A stretch of 63,048 bases of DNA, counting the filler, from Globobulimina sp. (lineage: Eukaryota): NCBI GenBank assembly GCA_003354225.1. It is 31 parts of 31 records of this genome, joined end to end, with 100 filler letters (N's around TTAATTAATTAA, not from the genome) between each part and the next. Parts side by side here need not be neighbours in the genome. Positions count along the whole stretch, not along the records: positions 14,268 to 16,205 come from PIVH01010395.1; 30 more parts are not named here. One strand, written 5' to 3'. This document shows, piece by piece, positions 2,040-22,317 of the stretch. Made by a program: the position numbers and the translations under genes. The stretch's first letter is position 1. Every line of letters begins with the position of its first letter. The notes below the pieces were generated by a model. The model did not search any database. It was not told the DNA's origin and worked only from the letters and a program-made list of their open reading frames with translations.

Positions 2040-2581
2040 TCCGGATTGGAATCTTTTGACCAGGCCCCACTCCATGGATTACTATCCTTTTTCTGCTCAG
2101 TTTCAGGGTTTTCACCTTCTTTCTGCTCTGTTTTTTTATTTTCATCCAATGCTTTTTGAAAACCTACGCCCGCAAACTGAGAGAATGAGTCTGTTGTGTT
2201 GTTATTTGGAATGGTTTCTTTGTTGGAGGTTTGCGATAATGTGTCTGTTGTAGATATATTTGAGATATTCGACGACTGTCTAACCCACGAATTGTCGCCG
2301 AAGGTAAAGTCTGAAGCTTTAAATTTCCATTTATCTGTTTCTGATGTGTTGGATTGATCGTTTTTTTTAGAGTTTTGGTTCGATTTCGATTTTGCTTTTG
2401 CTGTGTTATCATTTTCATTTTTGTTGTTTGTGTTTGTGTCATTGTCAATGTCATGATTGATGTTTATGTCATTTACGGAGGGATTTGTGCTGTCGTCATT
2501 TAATTTCCTTTTTTTGGCGTTTGGTACGGATTCGGAAATGTCTGTGTCTGTATCTGCCAAGACACGTTTTTTGGACGCCAT
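2040..2581 (-). CDS. N-terminal fragment of a low-complexity nuclear protein (possibly Nup50/RanBP-like)
   Basis: Bipartite NLS-like MASKKRVL..PNAKKRKL and FTFG / FAGVGF motifs. Runs off the contig. Confidence 0.5.
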
Positions 2582-2623
2582 GATAAATAAATGTGTTGTT
2601 CAACTAAAGAGTTTTAACTTACA

Positions 2624-3977
2624 ATGGCAGAAACTTCAGAGAAATTGGAATTTGCACTGTTGAATGCAGATGACATGAATCAACCAAATAATGCTGACAA
2701 TACAGATGATATTAAACAAGAAGATGAAGCAAATGAAGAAACTGACAGTTCAAGTGATTCTGAACAAGATGATATCCCATTCATTAAAGAAACAAAATCC
2801 GCAAAATCAAAAAGAACAAAACGAAAAACGATTGAGGACGAACCACAATATAAAGTTGAGCATATTTATATTTTTTAAACTGTAAAACTGCTATTTTGGG
2901 GAAACATTTTATTTAATTTTACTTAATAAAAATGGATACACTTTCTATACAGACATGGTTTTCCATCACTTGTGATATATTCCAAATTGATTTGAACCAA
3001 CAACAGTACCATGCACATATTCGAATGAATATTTTCTGGAACGATCGAGAGATTGTTCGACGATATAAAGACGAGGAAAAACAACGGAAACGAAAACACC
3101 AACGCAGTTTTAAACAATTCTTATTTGAGATGAATAAACATTTTGGTTATTTTCTTCCAATGGATATTATTCAAATGAAAAATTTTAAAAATGCAGTGAG
3201 TATGGTGAATGATATTGAAACTGTTCATTTGTATGTACATAAATCTGAGAAAGGTGATATTCCGCAAATGGTTGTTACATTTGATGGGATATTATCTGAG
3301 CAGTTTGAAATGAGCAACTATCCATTTGATAAACAATTTATTAATGTTCGGGTATCGTTTAATGTAACAGCTCAGCATAAATTTCGTATTTCAACGACCA
3401 AACCAGGTTTTATGTTTTTGTCTGACTGTACACGTCATACTGTAACGTTTCTGATGTTTTCTAAAAGGTTTTGTAGCTTTTAAAGAGGGCATGATTACTT
3501 TACTTTGTTGAAGGCCTCAAAGGGCGATGCTTTGACTGATTGGGACTTATTAGAACCATGGATTGATTTGCATCATTTTGAGGAGGAATGTTTTCTGATT
3601 CGACTACGATTGCAACGTAAACCAAGTTTAGTTATTGTTCGAATCATTGTACCTTTGCTTATTGTGAGTGTTGCGCCATTTGTGTTGTATGCATTGGATG
3701 TGACTGAATATGCGGACAGATTATCAATTTTAGCAACATTATTATTGACATTGGTTGCATTCCATAGTTTGTTGAATGATTCATTGCCACCTTCGGAGTT
3801 ATCAACAATTGATTGGTATATTATAATATCGTATCTATCAATGCTTGTGTTGGGTGTTGGTGTTTGTTTATCAGATGAGGACAATAAGCAATTTCCATTT
3901 AAATTGGCTTCGTATATTTCTGGTGGATTGATATTTATTGCTGCAATTTATTTATTTTTATGGAGATGGATTAAATT
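2624..3977 (+). CDS. Pentameric ligand-gated ion channel, Cys-less (Pro-loop, GLIC/ELIC-like), multi-exon, 3' partial
   Basis: ORF pieces 2624, 2932 and 3505. Loop FEMSNYPFDKQ, M1 IVRIIVPLLIVS, M2 ADRLSILATLLLTLVAF, LPP, M3 LSTIDWYIIISYL and M4. Intron boundaries (~2854-2952, ~3408-3487) are approximate. Confidence 0.85.
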
Positions 3978-12460: not shown

Positions 12461-13570
12461 TCATTTGGTATACACAATGGCTGTTTCAAGACTTTGCTGG
12501 TTTTGATGATGTTGCGATGCCATTTTGGGATCTTTTTTGGACGAATCCATTGAATTCATATTATTATTTTTATTTTCTTCTGTTATGGTGAATTGTTGTA
12601 ATTTATGCAATTCCCATTCCAATCCATTATCAATTAATGATTTACATTTACAGCAACAAAACATAATATATATTTTGGATCCCTTCAATATTTGTAAAAA
12701 ACGAATATATTGCTCATTATTATGTTCTTGCATTAACAATGCAGAATAATTCATAATCACAAAAAATAGATTGCCAACCACTGCATACAATATCCACAGA
12801 TCAAAGAACACACAGACCACAACCATCAATGCTGATACTTCATACAAAATGGTTAATATTATAATCTTATTTAATATGTATTTGGTCCTCATCTCGATGT
12901 CTTTGTTTTTATTGATAGTCATTTTGTTAAATTTCATTAATTTAATAATACATAAAACCAATGTGGTTAAATCCCATACAATGTAAATTAAATAACATGT
13001 TAACTCTCTAAGGTCCGAAGTTTCAGTAAATTCTCCAAAATATCTTACCACAAAAAAATTTAATTCTGAATCATATCCACATTTCCCGACAACATTATCC
13101 ATCACACAGCTGATTACAATGAAGATGATAAGTAAGCCGCCAATGGTATACATGGAAAGAAATAAATTATTCGAATAGCCATTGTTTGAATGAACCTGCG
13201 ATTTTGCACAGCAATAATATAAGCGCGATAATTGAAAATATCCCATAAATACGCCTTGAGCACCAAAGAAGGCGCGGCCTAATGCATAGGAGAAATGACA
13301 GAATATGGAAGGAATATATTGTAACATTATAAATAGCGGTGCCAAAGTTCCAGCAGTGATGCATAATAAAGGAAATATTTTGAAATATAGTGATACGTAC
13401 AGAATATGATCACCTTTTCGTTTCTGCAATTCTTTTTTTAAGATGTATGAAGTGAGCATTGTGGCAACAAAACCAGCACCAACAGACACTATCCAGGTAG
13501 CAGGAGTTTCATTAATATAACGGGATAAATTATCATTTTGTGGTATGGAGGGATGTGTGGTATTGAACAT
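12461..13570 (-). CDS. 7TM GPCR-like protein
   Basis: Intronless, seven hydrophobic segments, TM3-like FMGYFQLSRLYYC and a Cys-rich juxtamembrane tail (FCCCKC). Confidence 0.75.
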   Translation of the reverse strand: MFNTTHPSIPQNDNLSRYINETPATWIVSVGAGFVATMLTSYILKKELQKRKGDHILYVSLYFKIFPLLCITAGTLAPLFIMLQYIPSIFCHFSYALGRAFFGAQGVFMGYFQLSRLYYCCAKSQVHSNNGYSNNLFLSMYTIGGLLIIFIVISCVMDNVVGKCGYDSELNFFVVRYFGEFTETSDLRELTCYLIYIVWDLTTLVLCIIKLMKFNKMTINKNKDIEMRTKYILNKIIILTILYEVSALMVVVCVFFDLWILYAVVGNLFFVIMNYSALLMQEHNNEQYIRFLQILKGSKIYIMFCCCKCKSLIDNGLEWELHKLQQFTITEENKNNNMNSMDSSKKDPKMASQHHQNQQSLETAIVYTK

Positions 13571-13600
13571 TTTTGCTCTCCCAGTTTTTGTCAACTAGTC

Positions 13601-14167
13601 ATGAGTAACAATACAACCTTTGAATATGCAGTAGGCACTGTAGTAAATGTCCGTTATGGCGGAAATCAACGAACCTATCAGCCAGCCACAGTGATTCGGA
13701 AACACGACTATGATCGATATGATGTCGAATTCAAATCCACTGCGAAAATACACACTGTCTTTTTTGACGATATTGACCATAATATTTATGAATCATTGTT
13801 AGTGTCAATAAAATCTGAGGAACCAAAAAACAATCAATATCATAAAAATAAAAAATGGAAATACTTTAAACAACGATACTTTATCAAAACCAAAGCACAG
13901 AGGACTGGGCTCGTTGTATCATACTCGAAGCGATACGATGCAAACAATCCCTTTATTAAACATAAAATATGCATCCTGTGCTGGACAGATATTTATTGTG
14001 CTTTGTATTACCACATTAATAACATTGCGCAACAACACAGAACACTTCTTTTTTAATTCAAAACAATCATTTCATGGCATATTCGATTCTTCCAATTCAC
14101 ATTACATGGTACAAACACAAACATTGCTGTCTGACATACAAAATAAGTTTGCTATTTTTGCTGCTTT
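13601..14167 (+). CDS. Protein with an N-terminal Tudor/SH3-like domain, partial
   Basis: YAVGTVVNVRY..YQPATVIRKHDYDRYDVEF is a Tudor/Agenet-type pattern. The downstream frame is unclear. Confidence 0.55.
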
Positions 14168-14267: not shown

Positions 14268-14989
14268 TTGTAAGTCATTTAATGCTTGCACTGGTTCGAA
14301 ATATCCAGCCTCTTCCTCGCAAAAAAAGTAAGATGAATCATCCATTTCTTTTTCTATCCATTCAGTATTACCTTTGAAATTTGTTTTTAATGTCAAGCTG
14401 TAATTACAATGTTGACAACAAATTGCAAGGCGGAGAAAAAAAGTAATTTACCTTCATTGTCAAACATAGCGCAGTCACTGTTAATTTGAGGGAATCTGTG
14501 TTTCATTGTATCTTTATCAATAATACTAGTTTCTATATTTAATTTTTTATATTTCTCATATTGTTCAGTAACTTCATATTCATTCATTGCTGCTGTTATT
14601 AATAAACATGTTTTTGTATAAATGCCGGATGCGTCTTTATACTGTAGATAATCGGTCCAATTTTGATAATGATACATTCCATTTTGAGCAACTTTTATCA
14701 TATTTTCGAGCGTATAATAACTTCTGCAGATTGCAGAGGATGCGCCGGAAGAACCATATCCGGGACCTGGGCATTTCTCGAATACTTTCACTTTTGTATT
14801 TGAGCTGCGTCTGGCAATTTGATATGCTGTGTTTAAGCCCATAATGCCACTCCCAATTACTGCAATGTCGCAGCGTTCATTATCAACACCCGACGAAAAA
14901 TACATGTGGCTGTTAGCGTGTATTGGAGAAATACATGCTCTATGACTCTGAGAATAGCTTTTGAGGAATGATTGTCGGAACACAGACAT
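14268..14989 (-). CDS. FAD-dependent oxidoreductase (DAO/sarcosine oxidase family), probably mitochondrial, 3' partial
   Basis: Ser/Arg-rich presequence, Rossmann motif DIAVIGSGIMG..FEK..GSSGASSAI, and intron 14372-14451 leading to EEEAGYFEP. Confidence 0.85.
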
Positions 14990-15014
14990 GGTTTTCAACG
15001 ACTAGTCAGTATTA

Positions 15015-16148
15015 ATGGACTTCATCAAAAAACTATTTTCTTCAATGTCCACCAAACCTGCAATCAGTGAAGAAAAAGAGGTTGACAATGATGAACATGA
15101 GTTGATAGAATGGCTACAAAAGAATGATTTATCCGATATTCAACATGCATTGATACAAAAAAAATACACATTACTAACTTTCAAATACTTAAATCCCTCT
15201 GACATGGATTCCGTAATCGAAGACTTAAAAACTGATTCAAATCTAAAATTGACAGTGCCGCAGGTATTAAGATTTAAAGCCGCAGTGAAAAACTTATCAG
15301 CTGCCTCCAAACCAACCTCTCGGCATCACAAGAGTTCCAAATCAGAGTATACATATTCTATAGATTTGAATGAGTTTTATTCCACCACGCAAACCATAAC
15401 AATTATCGGCGGCTCTCGCGTTGGAAAGTCGTCCATCAAAGACGTGATTATTGGCGGCACCTTCGATGAGAATCGATTCCCAACCATCCGCATGAAGGAG
15501 CAGCCCGAATTATATATTGCGCAAATCAAACGAGCGCGGTCTGCGTCGTCGGCACTTTACAATGACAGGAAAAACATTGAGGTCAAGTACCATATTTGGG
15601 ACTGTCCCGGACAAAAAGCATTGGAGCATATACCACCTTTATATATTACAGGTATGTATGATTGGTTTAATATGTTTGCTATGCATTTATTGATCTGTTT
15701 TTAAGGAGCAATGGCGATATTGATTGTGTATGATATCACGGATAATGTGACATGGAAGCGAGCCATTGAATGGATGCGATATATACGGGACGAAGCAAAG
15801 GGGTATGATCGGGTTTTGGTGGTTGGAAATAAGAAAGATTTGGCAGGCAAAAGGGAGGTCACTTACGAGGAAGCAAATAATGAATGTATGGGCTTTGGCT
15901 ATAATTATATTGAAACGTCTGCTAAGTCTGGAACAAATATCAATACATTGCAGAAATGGTTCGATTCGCACACACAGAATAAGGTTGAGAATAAAATTAA
16001 GGAATATAATCGCAATGATGAGTGGAAAAATGAACGTATTCGATTGGAGGCTGTGTTGGAGAAACATAAAAATGATAAGAAGGATGGTGGAAAAAATGAT
16101 GAAGCGAAAGAGGAGAAAGAAGATTTGTTTTCGTGTTGTGATTTTTAA
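15015..16148 (+). CDS. Rab-like small GTPase with an N-terminal SAM-like domain
   Basis: Intron 15652-15705 joins YITG|AMAILIVYD. G1 GGSRVGKSS, G3 WDCPGQ, G4 NKKD, G5 ETSAK, C-terminal CCDF. The N-terminus LIEWLQKNDL..LTVPQVLRFKAAV is SAM-like. Confidence 0.85.
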
Positions 16149-16507: not shown

Positions 16508-18243
16508 ATGGCCGAATCTAAGGAAAAATCCATAAATCCAGGTATTAATAAAAATGTTCTAAATATTAAAAATTCTAAAAATTCAAAAAATATTTGTTGT
16601 AATGACTGTTCATATGAGTGCGTTCATAATTATGTACCTACTAACAATATTTGTTCGACTATTGATACTAACAATATTATTTTACCGACAAGTTCTACGA
16701 CAGATTTATCTACTAACACTAATCCCCCGGCCGAAAGACAAAAATACGAAAGAAAAGCTAAATCTAAATTTCAAAAAGTTGTTGATGAGAGAAACCAAAG
16801 AAATGAAGAACGAAAGAAGAGTATGGAAGATCGAAAAATTGCTAAATTGCAAAAAAATTCGACCGTTGAAGAAGAAAAATCTAAAATATCGTCTAATTCT
16901 AAGCGAAAATCGCTAAATGTCCCAAATTCTAAACTTATAAGGCAAAATGCCGTTACATCTAATACTATCGACAACAACAAACCTACTGAGAGAATAGAAA
17001 AGGCGAATTCGTCAATTCTAAATGATCTAAAAAGACTGAAATTGGCTGCAAAATCTTTCGAATCAGTAGAACCAAAATTGACTCCTTATGTGCCTGAAGG
17101 GCTAAATCTTAGCTTTTTAGACACTTCAATATCATCAACACCGTCTATGATAGAGGATGAAATCATATATAGCCCTGAATCTTCCATTAAATCCCAAAAT
17201 TCTGTCCAAAATAACGACGAGGAAAATGATACTATATGTATCGACAAATTAAACGAAATACCATATACTTCTACTGTTACACCAACGTTTGAACAACCAT
17301 CAACCTCAACTATATCATCAACAGGACCCGAAAACTCATCGGGGGTCCCGACGGACGATCAAAACTCTAAGAATTCGACTTTTAAAAACGACGGTGAATT
17401 CGATACGGTATTTTCCCCTAAAATACAAGATTTACGCAATGTATCAACCAGTAATGTACCTCTATCATCAATTGAATCAATAATAGAAACCGATATACCA
17501 TGGGTGGATCCTACGAACGTCCAAAATTCTAAAAATTCTAAAAATTCGATTCCAAGACTGAAAAAAGCTGCAAAATCTATCGAAACTACAGAACCAAAAA
17601 TAACGCCTTATGTTCCTGAAAAGCTAAATCTTAGCTTTTTAGACAGTCCAACTATATCATCAACATCGACTCTAGATGTTAGAATCCCTGAAAGCCCAAA
17701 ATCTTCCCTTAAATCCCAAAATTCTATTCAAAAAAACGACGACGAAAATAATAAAATATGCATCGACAAAATAACTGAAATACCATATTCATCTACCGAT
17801 ATATCGAAGCTTAAAGAACCACCAACCTCAGCTATATCATCATCAGAACCCGATATATCATCGGGGGAACATACGAACGTTCAAAAATCTAAAAATTCAA
17901 TTTCAAAAAACGACGGTGAAATCGTTACGGTATTTTCCCCTAAAATTCCTGATTTACGCTATGTATCTATCAATACTATATTACCAACATCAGTTACTTC
18001 TATCTATTCATCTACTTCATCTATACTATATCCTCAATCTGATAAATTATCGGAAAGATCTCCAAAAACCCAAAAATCGCCAAATTCAATAACACAAAAC
18101 GACGGGAAAAACGATACTGTATTTTCCGATAATAAACCTGATTTACGATATGTTTCGAATATTGCAATTATTCCAACAACTACATCACAATCATCTACAA
18201 CCATCCGACCCGATATAAAGTCGGAGAGGTCTCAAAAATTACC
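16508..18243 (+). CDS. Intronless Ser/Thr/Lys-rich protein with long internal repeats, 3' partial
   Basis: Open for more than 570 codons. A ~174-aa block is duplicated (RLK.AAKS.E..EPK.TPYVPE.LNLSFLD). Confidence 0.65.
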
Positions 18244-18343: not shown

Positions 18344-18674
18344 GTTGGGCAGTTGGTTACAAACAATATTATTATTGATTATAAATAATACAGTTTATTG
18401 GGTTCGAAATGATTTAAATAAATCAAAATTAGAGAATTATTTTATTCTATGTGCGCTTTTGTTGGTTGTTGATATATTAATATTTGTTATTTATGCAAAG
18501 ATATATAAATATCAAAATATTGAGTATCCGAAATACACACAAATTACAACAGTGACAAAAACAAGATCTGATACAAGTGATCTTTTCAATCTTGACGAGT
18601 ATACACAAGAAACACATGCATTAAATGCTCAAAATGCGAATGCAAACTACGATGCTTGTTCAACAAATGTATAA
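18344..18674 (+). CDS. C-terminal fragment of a membrane transporter (possibly POT/MFS)
   Basis: Two TM helices, with DLNKSKLENYFILCALL...IYAKIYKY resembling the PTR2/POT C-terminus. Confidence 0.5.
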
Positions 18675-18708
18675 CACTTTACATATTTAAAAAAAAGTTA
18701 CGGTCATA

Positions 18709-19698
18709 TCACTGAACCACCATCTTGTCATATTTCACAGTAAATGTAAATATTGACTGTTTATTCCTTTTCTTAAACTTACCATCCACCACCATGTTCA
18801 TACTAAATTTTATATTTTGATTATTTTTACATTGTTTGGCAACATTCAATGTTGACGTACACAACAAATCATCTTTAACCACAAGATTTGCATCATATAT
18901 TTGAATAAAAATTGCTTCCTTTTCGTTTACAGATAAAAGTAAATATTCCTCCCATTTTGGATTAGTACTATTCTGAATCACTTTTGTTTTGACAGACTGA
19001 CCATTGCTATTTCTAAACACAGCATAGGCGTCACTCTCTTTTGGCAAATTAGTAGCACCCATCACATATATCTCTATAACGCCCGAATACAGCACCATTC
19101 CATAGCTATTTTCCATTGTATTTGCATCCATGGCAGCATTTATTTCATCAAATATCGGCGGCAATGGAGATAACTGCGGCTGATGAATGAAGGCAGGTTC
19201 TAACCGGTTTGTTATTTTATAGTCGCGTTGATTAATACCGACATATTTGGCAATAATATACTTTTTACGGAGATGTTTGGATGAATTAGAGGTTGGTTTT
19301 ACATACGATCGATCGACATGGAATTCCCATTTTGCATTAAATTCTTCATTCGATTCGCACATATTATCAACCATAGATTGCGTCCATTTGTCCAATGTAA
19401 TTGATCTCACTTTGGATACATCGGTACCTAAACTACGATGAACAGAGCAACATTTTATGCACAGAAGAATGCCTCGACATATTTCTGCCCATTTTGGGTT
19501 TGTATCGTCACAGTCTGCGCATTGGCTCCATTGTTGTGTTATTGTTGCAAGTCTCGGGAATAGATCTACAGCTGATATTATCTCTGGATATATCACAGGT
19601 TTTCTTGACGCGTTCACTGATTCGTTTCTTGCCAACAAACTCATTCTTGCTGCGTTCCACTCTCCATATCCTGGAGTACAGCCACAAACCGCACCCAT
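18709..19698 (-). CDS. ArfGAP domain plus C2 domain protein
   Basis: CADC-x16-CIKC..HRSLG..VSKVRSITLDKW, then C2 motif DAYAVF..KTKVIQNSTNPKWEE..IYDANLVVKDD. MGAVCGC is an acylation-like N-terminus. Confidence 0.92.
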   Translation of the reverse strand: MGAVCGCTPGYGEWNAARMSLLARNESVNASRKPVIYPEIISAVDLFPRLATITQQWSQCADCDDTNPKWAEICRGILLCIKCCSVHRSLGTDVSKVRSITLDKWTQSMVDNMCESNEEFNAKWEFHVDRSYVKPTSNSSKHLRKKYIIAKYVGINQRDYKITNRLEPAFIHQPQLSPLPPIFDEINAAMDANTMENSYGMVLYSGVIEIYVMGATNLPKESDAYAVFRNSNGQSVKTKVIQNSTNPKWEEYLLLSVNEKEAIFIQIYDANLVVKDDLLCTSTLNVAKQCKNNQNIKFSMNMVVDGKFKKRNKQSIFTFTVKYDKMVVQ

Positions 19699-20745: not shown

Positions 20746-21480
20746 TTAATTGATAAATTCATAATTTATTATTTCAACTTGATCGCCTTTCCCTAACAAT
20801 GAAAATCCTATTCTTATTTTGTTGTGCTTGCGCAATGACAATGTCTCTACAAAGATGTGGTTGTGATGTAATTCCAATGTGTCTTGTTCGAATTTAAACG
20901 AGAGTCGAAATACATCATCTTGGCCGAAACTCTTTTTTGGAACATATGCTAAAGCCATATTTTCATGTCCTTTCCGTTGCACATAAAAATTATTCTGAAC
21001 ATGATCTACAAATATTCCATTACAATGTTCAAGGTTTGGCCGAGTGCCCAAGTACGCATTCCAATCCACAACAGATTGCTCTATCGTCGATGTAATATAT
21101 CCCATAATAAATTCAGTCACACATTTTTTCCATTTTATATCTATATTGAATATACTGCACTGTTTATTTGTCACTTCTTCACCAAAAATACAAGTCGACC
21201 ATCCACCATCAGCTATTTTCGTCACAATGGTATCACTCAAATAATGTAAATCATCTCCATGCTTAAGAGTTGGATCGAATGTGAAGTCAAGAAAATAGTA
21301 CAGTACAACAATTAATATGATTCCTTCTGGCATGTCATATGAATATGATACATTACCATTATGTTTTGAAAATTGTTGGTATTTTCGGATATAACCACGG
21401 ACAATATCCTTGGTGAATTGATCAATTCTTTTCTTTTTTGTGGTTGAATTAAATTTGTTTTGTTTTATAGACAGTGACAT
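20746..21480 (-). CDS. SPRY/B30.2-like beta-sandwich protein with an N-terminal V.GYIR..P..I..YY module
   Basis: IVRGYIRK..MPEGIILIVVLYY followed by a beta-rich domain (FIMGYI, FGQDDVFRLSF, IRIGFSLL). Confidence 0.65.
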   Translation of the reverse strand: MSLSIKQNKFNSTTKKKRIDQFTKDIVRGYIRKYQQFSKHNGNVSYSYDMPEGIILIVVLYYFLDFTFDPTLKHGDDLHYLSDTIVTKIADGGWSTCIFGEEVTNKQCSIFNIDIKWKKCVTEFIMGYITSTIEQSVVDWNAYLGTRPNLEHCNGIFVDHVQNNFYVQRKGHENMALAYVPKKSFGQDDVFRLSFKFEQDTLELHHNHIFVETLSLRKHNKIRIGFSLLGKGDQVEIINYEFIN

Positions 21481-21513
21481 CTTGAAGTTTTTTGTCAAAG
21501 CCTTACTTAAAGC

Positions 21514-22317
21514 ATGCAACCCCCACCGTTACCAGATGAGTCAAAGGGTGATTTTACAATAACGCCAGACGTATGTACAGATTTGTTATACCACTCAAAA
21601 AGTAACAAACACCGAACAAATTAGGAAACAAAACGTTTGGAAGAATGTTTTAAAGATCGACAATTCCGAGACTTATTAAGCGATTATGTAAAAGAAATAA
21701 GTAATCCAAAAACAAAAATAGCGTATGAAGAATATCTAAAACAAGTCGAGAGCGAAGGTGGTTCGCCAGAAAATCGGAAATTAATGAAACCGCATCCAAT
21801 GTTTTGCATCAAAGCAAAAATTATTCCAAATACTGACAATGACAATGATAAATCATCAAAAACGCTAAAATATATTTTTGTAAATTGTTGTTACGGGAAA
21901 TTAGTCCAAGATGCAAAATTAACAAAATCCTCTGGTTTTGATCATGTATTAAATTGTTCCGGCTCTAAACGCGCCGGATTATGTTGGCAGATTCCATATA
22001 TTTTAGGACATAAAAGGTTTGATAGCAATGACGGAAGTATTATTTATGACATTGCATTCTCTGAAAACACAAAAACAAATTTAAATCAACGAGAACGTTT
22101 TAAAAACATTGTGATCAAAACTGCATTGGAAGCGGTTGACAGTGCAGAGACGGAATATAATTTATATATAAATAAGAAAAAACACAAAACATTAAAAACA
22201 AAGAAGTTTAAAGGTGCGATTGCGCCGCCTTTGATGTCTGTTTTTATAGAGACTGAAATACAAATGATTAATAAAATCAAAAAAATCAAAAAAATCCCGG
22301 AATTGGAAGAAATAAAA
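21514..22317 (+). CDS. DNAAF2: Kintoun/PF13 (PIH1 family) dynein assembly factor, 3' partial
   Basis: Exon 1 21514-21570 and a 54-nt intron 21571-21624. TKRLEECFKDRQFRDLLSDYVKEISNPK..YEEYLKQVE, KPHPMFCIK, IFVNCC and WQIPYILG match the Kintoun N-terminus and PIH1 domain. Confidence 0.85.

Follow-up and report, generated by a model that had tools for sequence, protein, structure and literature searches.

How little DNA can separate two genes that are read in opposite directions, and how would such genes be transcribed? The question is raised by a stretch of DNA from Globobulimina sp. (assembly GCA_003354225.1; 63,048 nucleotides, filler included, here called the window), in which an earlier note had marked four head-to-head gene pairs with start codons 25-42 bp apart. 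All four CAT/ATG pairs are present on four separate contigs, and are denoted here as J1 (14989/15015), J2 (13570/13601), J3 (21480/21514), and J4 (2581/2624). In each pair the first start codon is on the minus strand and the second on the plus strand. The pairs do exist and the arrangement recurs, but the headline figure of 25 bp is wrong. We consider it likely, with a probability of about 0.6, that these are real neighbouring nuclear genes, separately and divergently transcribed, with very short leaders and overlapping core promoters (30-55 bp between ATGs).

The four pairs and their start codons

In all four cases the genes lie on opposite strands with adjacent 5' ends within 1 kb, which is the head-to-head criterion, and 30-55 bp separate the start codons. 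The open reading frames (ORFs) flanking the spacers have 84 to 369 codons each, and five of the eight partners are backed by a Pfam family (DAO, Roc/Ras, and PIH1) or, for the others, by homologues. The partners were said earlier to be functionally unrelated, and this is borne out. J1 joins a DAO-family FAD-dependent oxidoreductase to a Roc/Ras GTPase, and J3 a protein of an unnamed family of about 230 aa to a PIH1 (Kintoun) protein. J2 joins a membrane protein to a possible Tudor-like ORF, and J4 a basic ORF with a KKRK stretch to an acidic one. Start codons are shown for four of the eight genes: both genes of J3, the J1 oxidoreductase, and the J1 GTPase at a moved start. J3 (33 bp) is solid, J1 is corrected to 55 bp, and J2 and J4 are plausible.

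The J3 start codons are at CAT 21478-21480 and ATG 21514. The minus-strand gene (20746..21480) is complete and encodes a 244-aa protein of an expanded family without a Pfam name. The family has 215 representatives at E<=0.001, some of them fused to SAM domains; among the best 9 of these 215 matches, four carry foraminiferal accessions (transcriptomes) and five come from ENA contigs. The protein starts MSLSIKQNKFNS, and P0014, which is 81% identical, starts MSLSIKQTKFNS at residue 1 with the same MSLSIKQ. All 11 aligned members of the family share the first methionine (alignment A2).

Across the 33-bp spacer (21481..21513) lies the Kintoun gene (21514..22317, plus strand; Pfam PIH1, E=6e-23), exon 2 of which runs off the contig. 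Exon 1 (21514-21570) reads MQPPPLPDESKGDFTITPD and, by the intron scan, is joined to ETKRLEECFKD over an intron of 54 nt (21571-21624, GTATGT..AG) that has an in-frame stop inside. The intact exon 1 with its intron, to which attention had been drawn before, is borne out by orthologues, whose N-termini it matches (MEAPPLPTQSDKKEDITLTDDETKRLEECF and MQPPQSSIEEQQDIQITAEEAKRLEECF; MQPPQ.., MEAPPLP.., MQLPQ.., MKPPQ..). Among its homologues are one protein of Reticulomyxa filosa (40% identity) and two others whose names are those of the marine transcriptome project (MMETSP), and in a cDNA-like relative (L002) a leader of 27 nt precedes MQPPQATS. ATGs 21480 and 21514 are each the first after an in-frame stop, the one before 21514 being two codons upstream. 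Because both ATGs match orthologue N-termini and each is the first after an in-frame stop, the 33-bp spacer of J3 is real.

J1 was first read as CAT 14987-14989 and ATG 15015-15017 with a spacer of 25 bp. Its minus-strand gene (14268..14989) is the 5' part of a DAO-family FAD-dependent oxidoreductase gene (Pfam DAO, E=1.4e-18) that runs off the contig. Exon 1 ends at ATG 14989, and an 80-nt intron (about 14368-14447) is skipped in spliced RNA contigs of three sequencing runs, X4, X7, and X8. ATG 14989 lies inside an X4 RNA contig that reaches 15005 and has no upstream ATG. In a relative (run X7), an in-frame insertion of 9 nt is found at 14975, just after the start-codon region; it would fit a poorly conserved targeting presequence.

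On the plus strand, the ATG of the first reading (15015..15017) is probably unused. In alignment A1 the GTPase orthologues P0001, P0002, and P0004 have their first residue at the position of M11, and M11 corresponds to ATG 15045. The N-terminus from this second methionine is MSTKPAISEEKE in the window and MTTKNAISEEKE in P0001. The X4 RNA contig of the GTPase gene starts at 15033, downstream of ATG 15015. The GTPase start is thus probably ATG 15045, and because orthologues and the RNA contig support it, the J1 spacer is 55 bp (14990..15044), not 25. The divergent CAT/ATG pair that was described at 25 bp exists, but its plus-strand start has the support of neither orthologues nor RNA. The corrected spacer holds an 8-bp palindrome, GACTAGTC (15000-15007), the ATG at 15015, and an A-run. 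From 15045 to 16148 (plus strand) the gene encodes a Roc/Ras-type small GTPase with an N-terminal extension (Pfam Roc and Ras), ending with a TAA stop at 16146-16148; a 54-nt intron (15650-15703) is skipped by an X4 joint at GT..AG. Downstream, the X4 GTPase contig ends at 16163, 15 nt past the stop, straight into adapter and with no A-run, and the 3' untranslated region may be very short. The contig of a relative (X8) continues beyond the end of the window contig past the GTPase stop.

Read evidence comes from Logan contigs matching the J1 contig, where X4, X7, and X8 are taken as RNA from their spliced joints. Both J1 genes are transcribed, since spliced RNA contigs of each are found in all three. 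X4, from another study and a near-identical organism, aligns in ten contigs, eight of them at least 99% alike, and skips both 14368-14447 and 15650-15703; X7 and X8 are from relatives (mostly 90-99% alike). The X4 oxidoreductase contig has its first letter at 15005, 16 nt upstream of ATG 14989, without additional letters in front. For the GTPase, the X4 contig opens at 15033, 12 nt short of ATG 15045, right after Illumina adapter letters. Between the two genes 27 bp (15006-15032) are covered by none of the RNA contigs listed, and none of these contigs bridges the gap. Run X2 is DNA, with introns kept, and its record 3 spans 14887-15792 with 0 differences, bridging the J1 junction. The earlier suggestions of near-zero 5' untranslated regions and of promoter elements inside the neighbouring gene fit these contig ends, 16 and 12 nt from the ATGs, at this one locus.

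The minus-strand gene of J2 (12461..13570, CAT 13568-13570) is complete and encodes a multi-pass membrane protein of 369 aa. Its one homologue, P0013 (34% identity, pairwise E=8e-50), has an N-terminal region of similar length, which is consistent with a start at 13570; a start at the next methionine would cut the first transmembrane helix. The 30-bp spacer (13571..13600) contains the palindrome ACTAGT at 13594-13599. On the other side is a candidate Tudor-like ORF of 151 codons (13601..14056, plus strand). Its matches to Pfam Tudor_3 (E=0.069) and in PDB (best E=0.13) are both weak. Atlas scores are at most 0.86, with Tudor-like leads at 0.78-0.80, and for its first 70 codons the ORF has a codon score of 0.24 per codon. 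A single-sequence fold is uninformative, with a mean predicted local distance difference test score (pLDDT) of 47.

J4 (CAT 2579-2581 / ATG 2624) has a spacer of 42 bp (2582..2623). To its left is a putative basic ORF of at least 180 codons (2042..2581, minus strand), which starts MASKKRVL, includes the KKRK stretch, and runs off the contig; it has a codon score of 0.46 per codon and no Pfam family. To its right is a putative acidic ORF of 84 codons (2624..2878, plus strand) with its own stop and a coding-like codon score. Low-complexity composition may inflate the codon scores of both J4 ORFs. An intron scan found no intron that joins 2624..2878 to the next ORF (ATG 2932). The 53 bp at 2879-2931 separate stop from ATG in these same-strand neighbours. 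A Cys-loop channel was considered for ORFs 2932-3975 and set aside, being without Pfam support.

Spacing, upstream motifs, and the source DNA

A rough gene map of the window was drawn by hand from ORFs, a codon-usage score, and the intron scan, giving 48 gene pieces and 18 adjacent pairs. The five divergent spacers measure 30, 33, 42, 55, and 274 bp. The nine tandem spacers (stop to ATG) measure 53, 113, 120, 122, 173, 175, 359, 382, and 485 bp, and the four convergent ones (stop to stop) 34, 119, 145, and 419 bp. Spacers of 55 bp or less therefore make up 4/5 of the divergent, 1/9 of the tandem, and 1/4 of the convergent class, and the divergent class is shorter than the tandem class (p=0.021, one-sided exact Mann-Whitney test). 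A weak ORF (55579-) is excluded from the map; its inclusion would give a sixth divergent pair at 176 bp. In most genomes the order is the opposite, and divergent spacers as the shortest intergenic class are an unusual feature of this window. About 18.7 kb of about 60 kb is non-coding in the map (approximately 30%), so the window is dense but unevenly packed. At 18675-18708, about 34 bp lie between the stops of two convergent genes (a plus-strand ORF ending at 18674 and a minus-strand ArfGAP-C2 gene ending at 18709), and 3' ends are packed there as tightly as 5' ends are elsewhere. Close packing is likewise seen in one tandem pair (53 bp) and ahead of the Kintoun ATG of a relative (57 bp).

Upstream motifs were counted at 30 candidate starts, picked by hand from 59 first-ATG rows after shadow frames and internal methionines had been dropped. 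In the 40 nt upstream of these ATGs the top 4-mer is AACT, found 14 times where 3.92 are expected (p=6e-5 in 228 tests), and the top 6-mer is AAAACT (6 against 0.54). In the 40 nt downstream AACT occurs once. The head-to-head genes have 7 occurrences of AACT against 1.05 expected, in 6/8 genes. At J1 the two RNA contigs each open with CTA, and the base before it is A (minus strand, GA|CTAGTCG; plus strand, AA|CTATTTTC). The palindrome ACTAGT is common to J1 and J2. It has nine sites in the window against 5.8 expected; two of the nine are in spacers (post hoc p=2.5e-4), and the other seven have no consistent link to gene starts. Three motifs first spotted by eye (CAACTAGTC, TTKTCAAC, and TTGACAAAAACT) are not enriched in the window, and AACTW with a fixed gap of 8 nt before the ATG gives one match against 8 expected. 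An AACT-type initiator is a weak lead, not a finding.

The window consists of 31 contigs of 1,936-1,939 bp apiece, ordered by length and joined through N44-TTAATTAATTAA-N44 linkers. GC content is 0.29-0.38 in 30 of the 31. The remaining contig (46861-48796, GC 0.49) encodes SPT5 KOW domains and may belong to a different eukaryote of the sample or hold a gene of odd composition. The standard code keeps long frames open, and GT..AG introns of 54 and 80 nt are confirmed by RNA runs. The ciliate code (table 6) gave a poorer fit than the standard code combined with GT..AG introns and was dropped. Telomere-type repeats are absent from the window (no C4A4/G4T4, and the other hexamers tested are not repeated at contig ends). 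Two-gene, gene-sized chromosomes of the ciliate type are not supported, there being no telomere repeats and the genes running off contig ends. Scans of the window with Rfam and for tRNA genes gave 0 hits each, with neither a spliced-leader RNA nor another RNA gene. The closest homologous proteins, with EukProt accessions, are those of Bolivina argentea, Nonionella stella, and Globobulimina turgida (81% identity), and homologues place the window in a rotaliid-like foraminifer. Elsewhere in the window, a (TA)n run at the start of a contig (57041-57065) probably caused the break in the assembly. At 16508-18241, an ORF of 578 codons or more has long internal repeats (blocks like ..EPK.TPYVPE.LNLSFLD..) and no Pfam family.

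Proposed transcription from the spacers

How could both genes of a pair be transcribed from so little DNA? Each gene would have a transcription start site of its own, about 6-30 nt ahead of the ATG. The start sites of one pair would then lie within about 30 bp of each other and might even cross. At J1 they would be at most about 28 bp apart, and at J3 about 19 bp apart if the AACT lead holds. The pre-initiation complex of Pol II (RNA polymerase II) occupies a longer stretch than about 30 bp. Because the complex needs more DNA than the spacing offers, each core promoter would extend over the leader and first codons of the partner gene. The spacer would act as a single compact bidirectional promoter region, on which two initiation complexes would be mutually exclusive on one copy of the DNA. 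No new machinery is needed. The other three loci would follow the same scheme if they behave like J1.

Several points weigh against this reading. RNA evidence comes from one pair of four, and a contig end there gives the minimum length of a leader, as Logan contigs fix neither start site nor strand. Adapter letters also occur internally (14511 in X7), and their presence at 15033 is therefore no proof of a true RNA end. The J1 junction is bridged by the X2 DNA contig, but X2 may be the source sample of the assembly, so that this bridge is not independent. Three of the eight starts, 13601(+), 2581(-), and 2624(+), are open frames with a coding-like codon score alone. The J3 pairing is not conserved: in a relative (L001, 68% protein identity) the neighbour of Kintoun is on the same strand, 57 bp from its stop to the Kintoun ATG (L001 1954-2010), in a spacer with the direct repeat ACACTTAGTAC ACTTAGTAC. 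Outside the pairs AACT precedes just 6/22 genes (7 occurrences against 2.88 expected, p=0.027), and a non-coding background raises its overall expectation to 5.25 (p=0.001), which fails correction for 228 tests. The 40-nt stretches upstream of the two genes of each head-to-head pair overlap and so are not independent. Finally, the gene map is hand-made and unblinded, and contigs of 1.9 kb can show only close pairs. As to relatives, a scan of metagenomes with the Kintoun alignment gave three loci, 0/3 with a head-to-head partner. No relatives' loci were found in a metagenome scan with the GTPase alignment, nor in a genome-contig scan and two viral-contig scans.

Among the alternatives, the one that survives best is that promoters are of ordinary size and the divergent transcripts overlap. 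Transcription would start tens to hundreds of bases inside the coding region of the partner, leaders would be long and antisense to it, and a short spacer would say nothing about promoter size. Overlapping transcripts occur in microsporidia and nucleomorphs. Since contig ends mark a minimum extent, the J1 transcripts could be longer than they appear, and no plus-strand ATG occurs within 74 nt ahead of the Kintoun start codon, so a longer leader would carry no upstream start. However, the two X4 contigs (word depths 28 and 109) stop 27 bp apart and are unjoined among the matches listed, while an unstranded assembly would tend to merge overlaps. In addition, the GTPase contig turns directly into adapter at 15033, and a plus-strand transcript that began before 15015 would include an in-frame ATG from which the orthologues do not start. 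We regard overlapping transcripts as unlikely, though worth keeping in mind.

It is rather improbable that the starts were mis-called, with the true ones further downstream or in unseen upstream exons and the spacers much longer than 25-42 bp. This is partly true at J1, where the plus-strand start moves from 15015 to 15045, and the starts at 13601, 2581, and 2624 have neither homologue nor RNA support. The corrected J1 spacer is still just 55 bp, however. The N-termini at 21480 and 21514 match orthologues residue by residue, with each ATG the first after an in-frame stop; the RNA contig holds ATG 14989 and none earlier; and a later methionine would truncate the first transmembrane helix of the gene that starts at 13570.

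That assembly or amplification fused unrelated fragments head to head is very improbable. With contigs of some 1.9 kb the assembly is highly fragmented, and the sole DNA run that bridges J1 is the possible source sample. Yet chimeras would be expected to break at random, whereas four of four joints lie just upstream of two start codons. Independent X4 RNA matches reach up to 15005 and resume from 15033, which leaves 27 bp for a hidden joint, and word depths of the X2 contigs on the two sides are similar (4.8, 6.1, and 4.0). The earlier view that the pairs are not amplification chimeras holds up, and they are not cDNA joins either: introns are still in the contigs, and the X2 contig bridges 14887-15792.

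Trans-splicing of a spliced leader, which would supply the 5' ends and make a promoter in the spacer unneeded, was also put forward in the earlier note and can be practically discounted: it is present in another rhizarian, Paulinella micropora (PMC6053224, in the text available), but a leader check found none shared by the 5' contig ends of the J1 genes, the X4 oxidoreductase contig having no extra 5' letters and the GTPase contig being preceded by adapter only, the two ends follow GA and AA rather than an AG acceptor, the cDNA-like relative L002 has a different leader of 27 nt, and a literature search found no spliced leader in foraminifera among the matches listed.

Known systems and what the pairs would mean

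Are such pairs known from other organisms? In Giardia lamblia, promoters are about 60 nt long, leaders are 3-25 nt, and promoters fire bidirectionally (Teodorovic et al. 2007, PMC1885649, available portions). The idea of an undescribed system, raised in the earlier note, cannot be kept, as compact bidirectional promoters with short leaders are known from that work. As in the part of that study at hand, leaders here would be very short (3-25 nt there; at least 12-16 nt here, the contig minimum at J1), promoter regions would be tiny, and one short intergenic region would serve unrelated head-to-head genes. The same portions of text also report degenerate AT-rich initiators and sterile antisense RNAs, which are shown there in Giardia. 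On the other hand, the Giardia ran/phd spacer is 153 bp as given there, whereas the spacers here are 33-55 bp. The Giardia genome, as portrayed in those portions, is small and nearly intron-free, in contrast to the introns of 54-80 nt and the roughly 30% of non-coding DNA in our rough map. By analogy, the arrangement may resemble that of Giardia or of microsporidia.

Tight head-to-head gaps have been noted in other compact genomes as well. In animals, plants, and yeast, unrelated genes on opposite strands also have a common upstream region shorter than 1 kb, but their start sites are usually at least 100 bp apart, while in the window even the start codons are separated by no more than 33-55 bp. 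The Paramecium macronucleus, as far as the text of PMC8997361 at hand describes it, is similar in being densely coding, with short intergenic regions and many neighbours arranged start to start. Divergent distances in Paramecium equal or exceed tandem ones, whereas divergent spacers are the shortest class in our window.

Closer to Globobulimina, Reticulomyxa filosa and Lemnamoeba sinaloensis have mean introns of 87 and 82 bp and median intergenic distances of 426 and 162 bp, respectively (PMC13746701 Table 1, in the extract available), and so share short introns and short intergenic distances with the window. The available sections of the same paper describe no orientation-specific spacing, head-to-head class, or promoter, and contain 0 uses of 'bidirectional' or 'head-to-head'. 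A literature search found no report of bidirectional promoters in foraminifera, where supplements outside the search may hold gene-spacing data. Likewise, among the matches listed it found no on-topic report of head-to-head genes in foraminifera and none of bidirectional promoters in Rhizaria genes. The tight head-to-head arrangement is new for foraminifera and of a known kind elsewhere. To our knowledge, almost nothing is known about the organisation and transcription of foraminiferal nuclear genes. Foraminiferal assemblies are fragmentary, with a contig N50 of 1.8 kb (PMC6783311) and, for Reticulomyxa, 3.6 kb (Table 1 of PMC13746701, as available), and a survey of Astrammina indicates that mRNA processing may be unusual (PMC3079666).

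A bolder proposal, tentative and rather doubtful at present, is that foraminifera have a distinct class of such pairs. In this class, start sites would be less than about 30 bp apart, leaders would be about 6-16 nt, and the initiator would be (A)A|CT(A/T), at times with ACTAGT firing both ways. Divergent spacers would be systematically the shortest in an otherwise unreduced genome. If true, interleaved and mutually exclusive initiation complexes, together with translation of near-leaderless mRNAs, would be normal in a large free-living eukaryote.

If the class of divergent spacers of 55 bp or less holds genome-wide, it would provide candidates for minimal promoters in a group without genetic tools. 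It would also be a warning for annotation, as calls of the first ATG can be off by tens of bases (15015 being a case). Finally, such pairs would offer a natural test of the minimum distance between divergent Pol II start sites.

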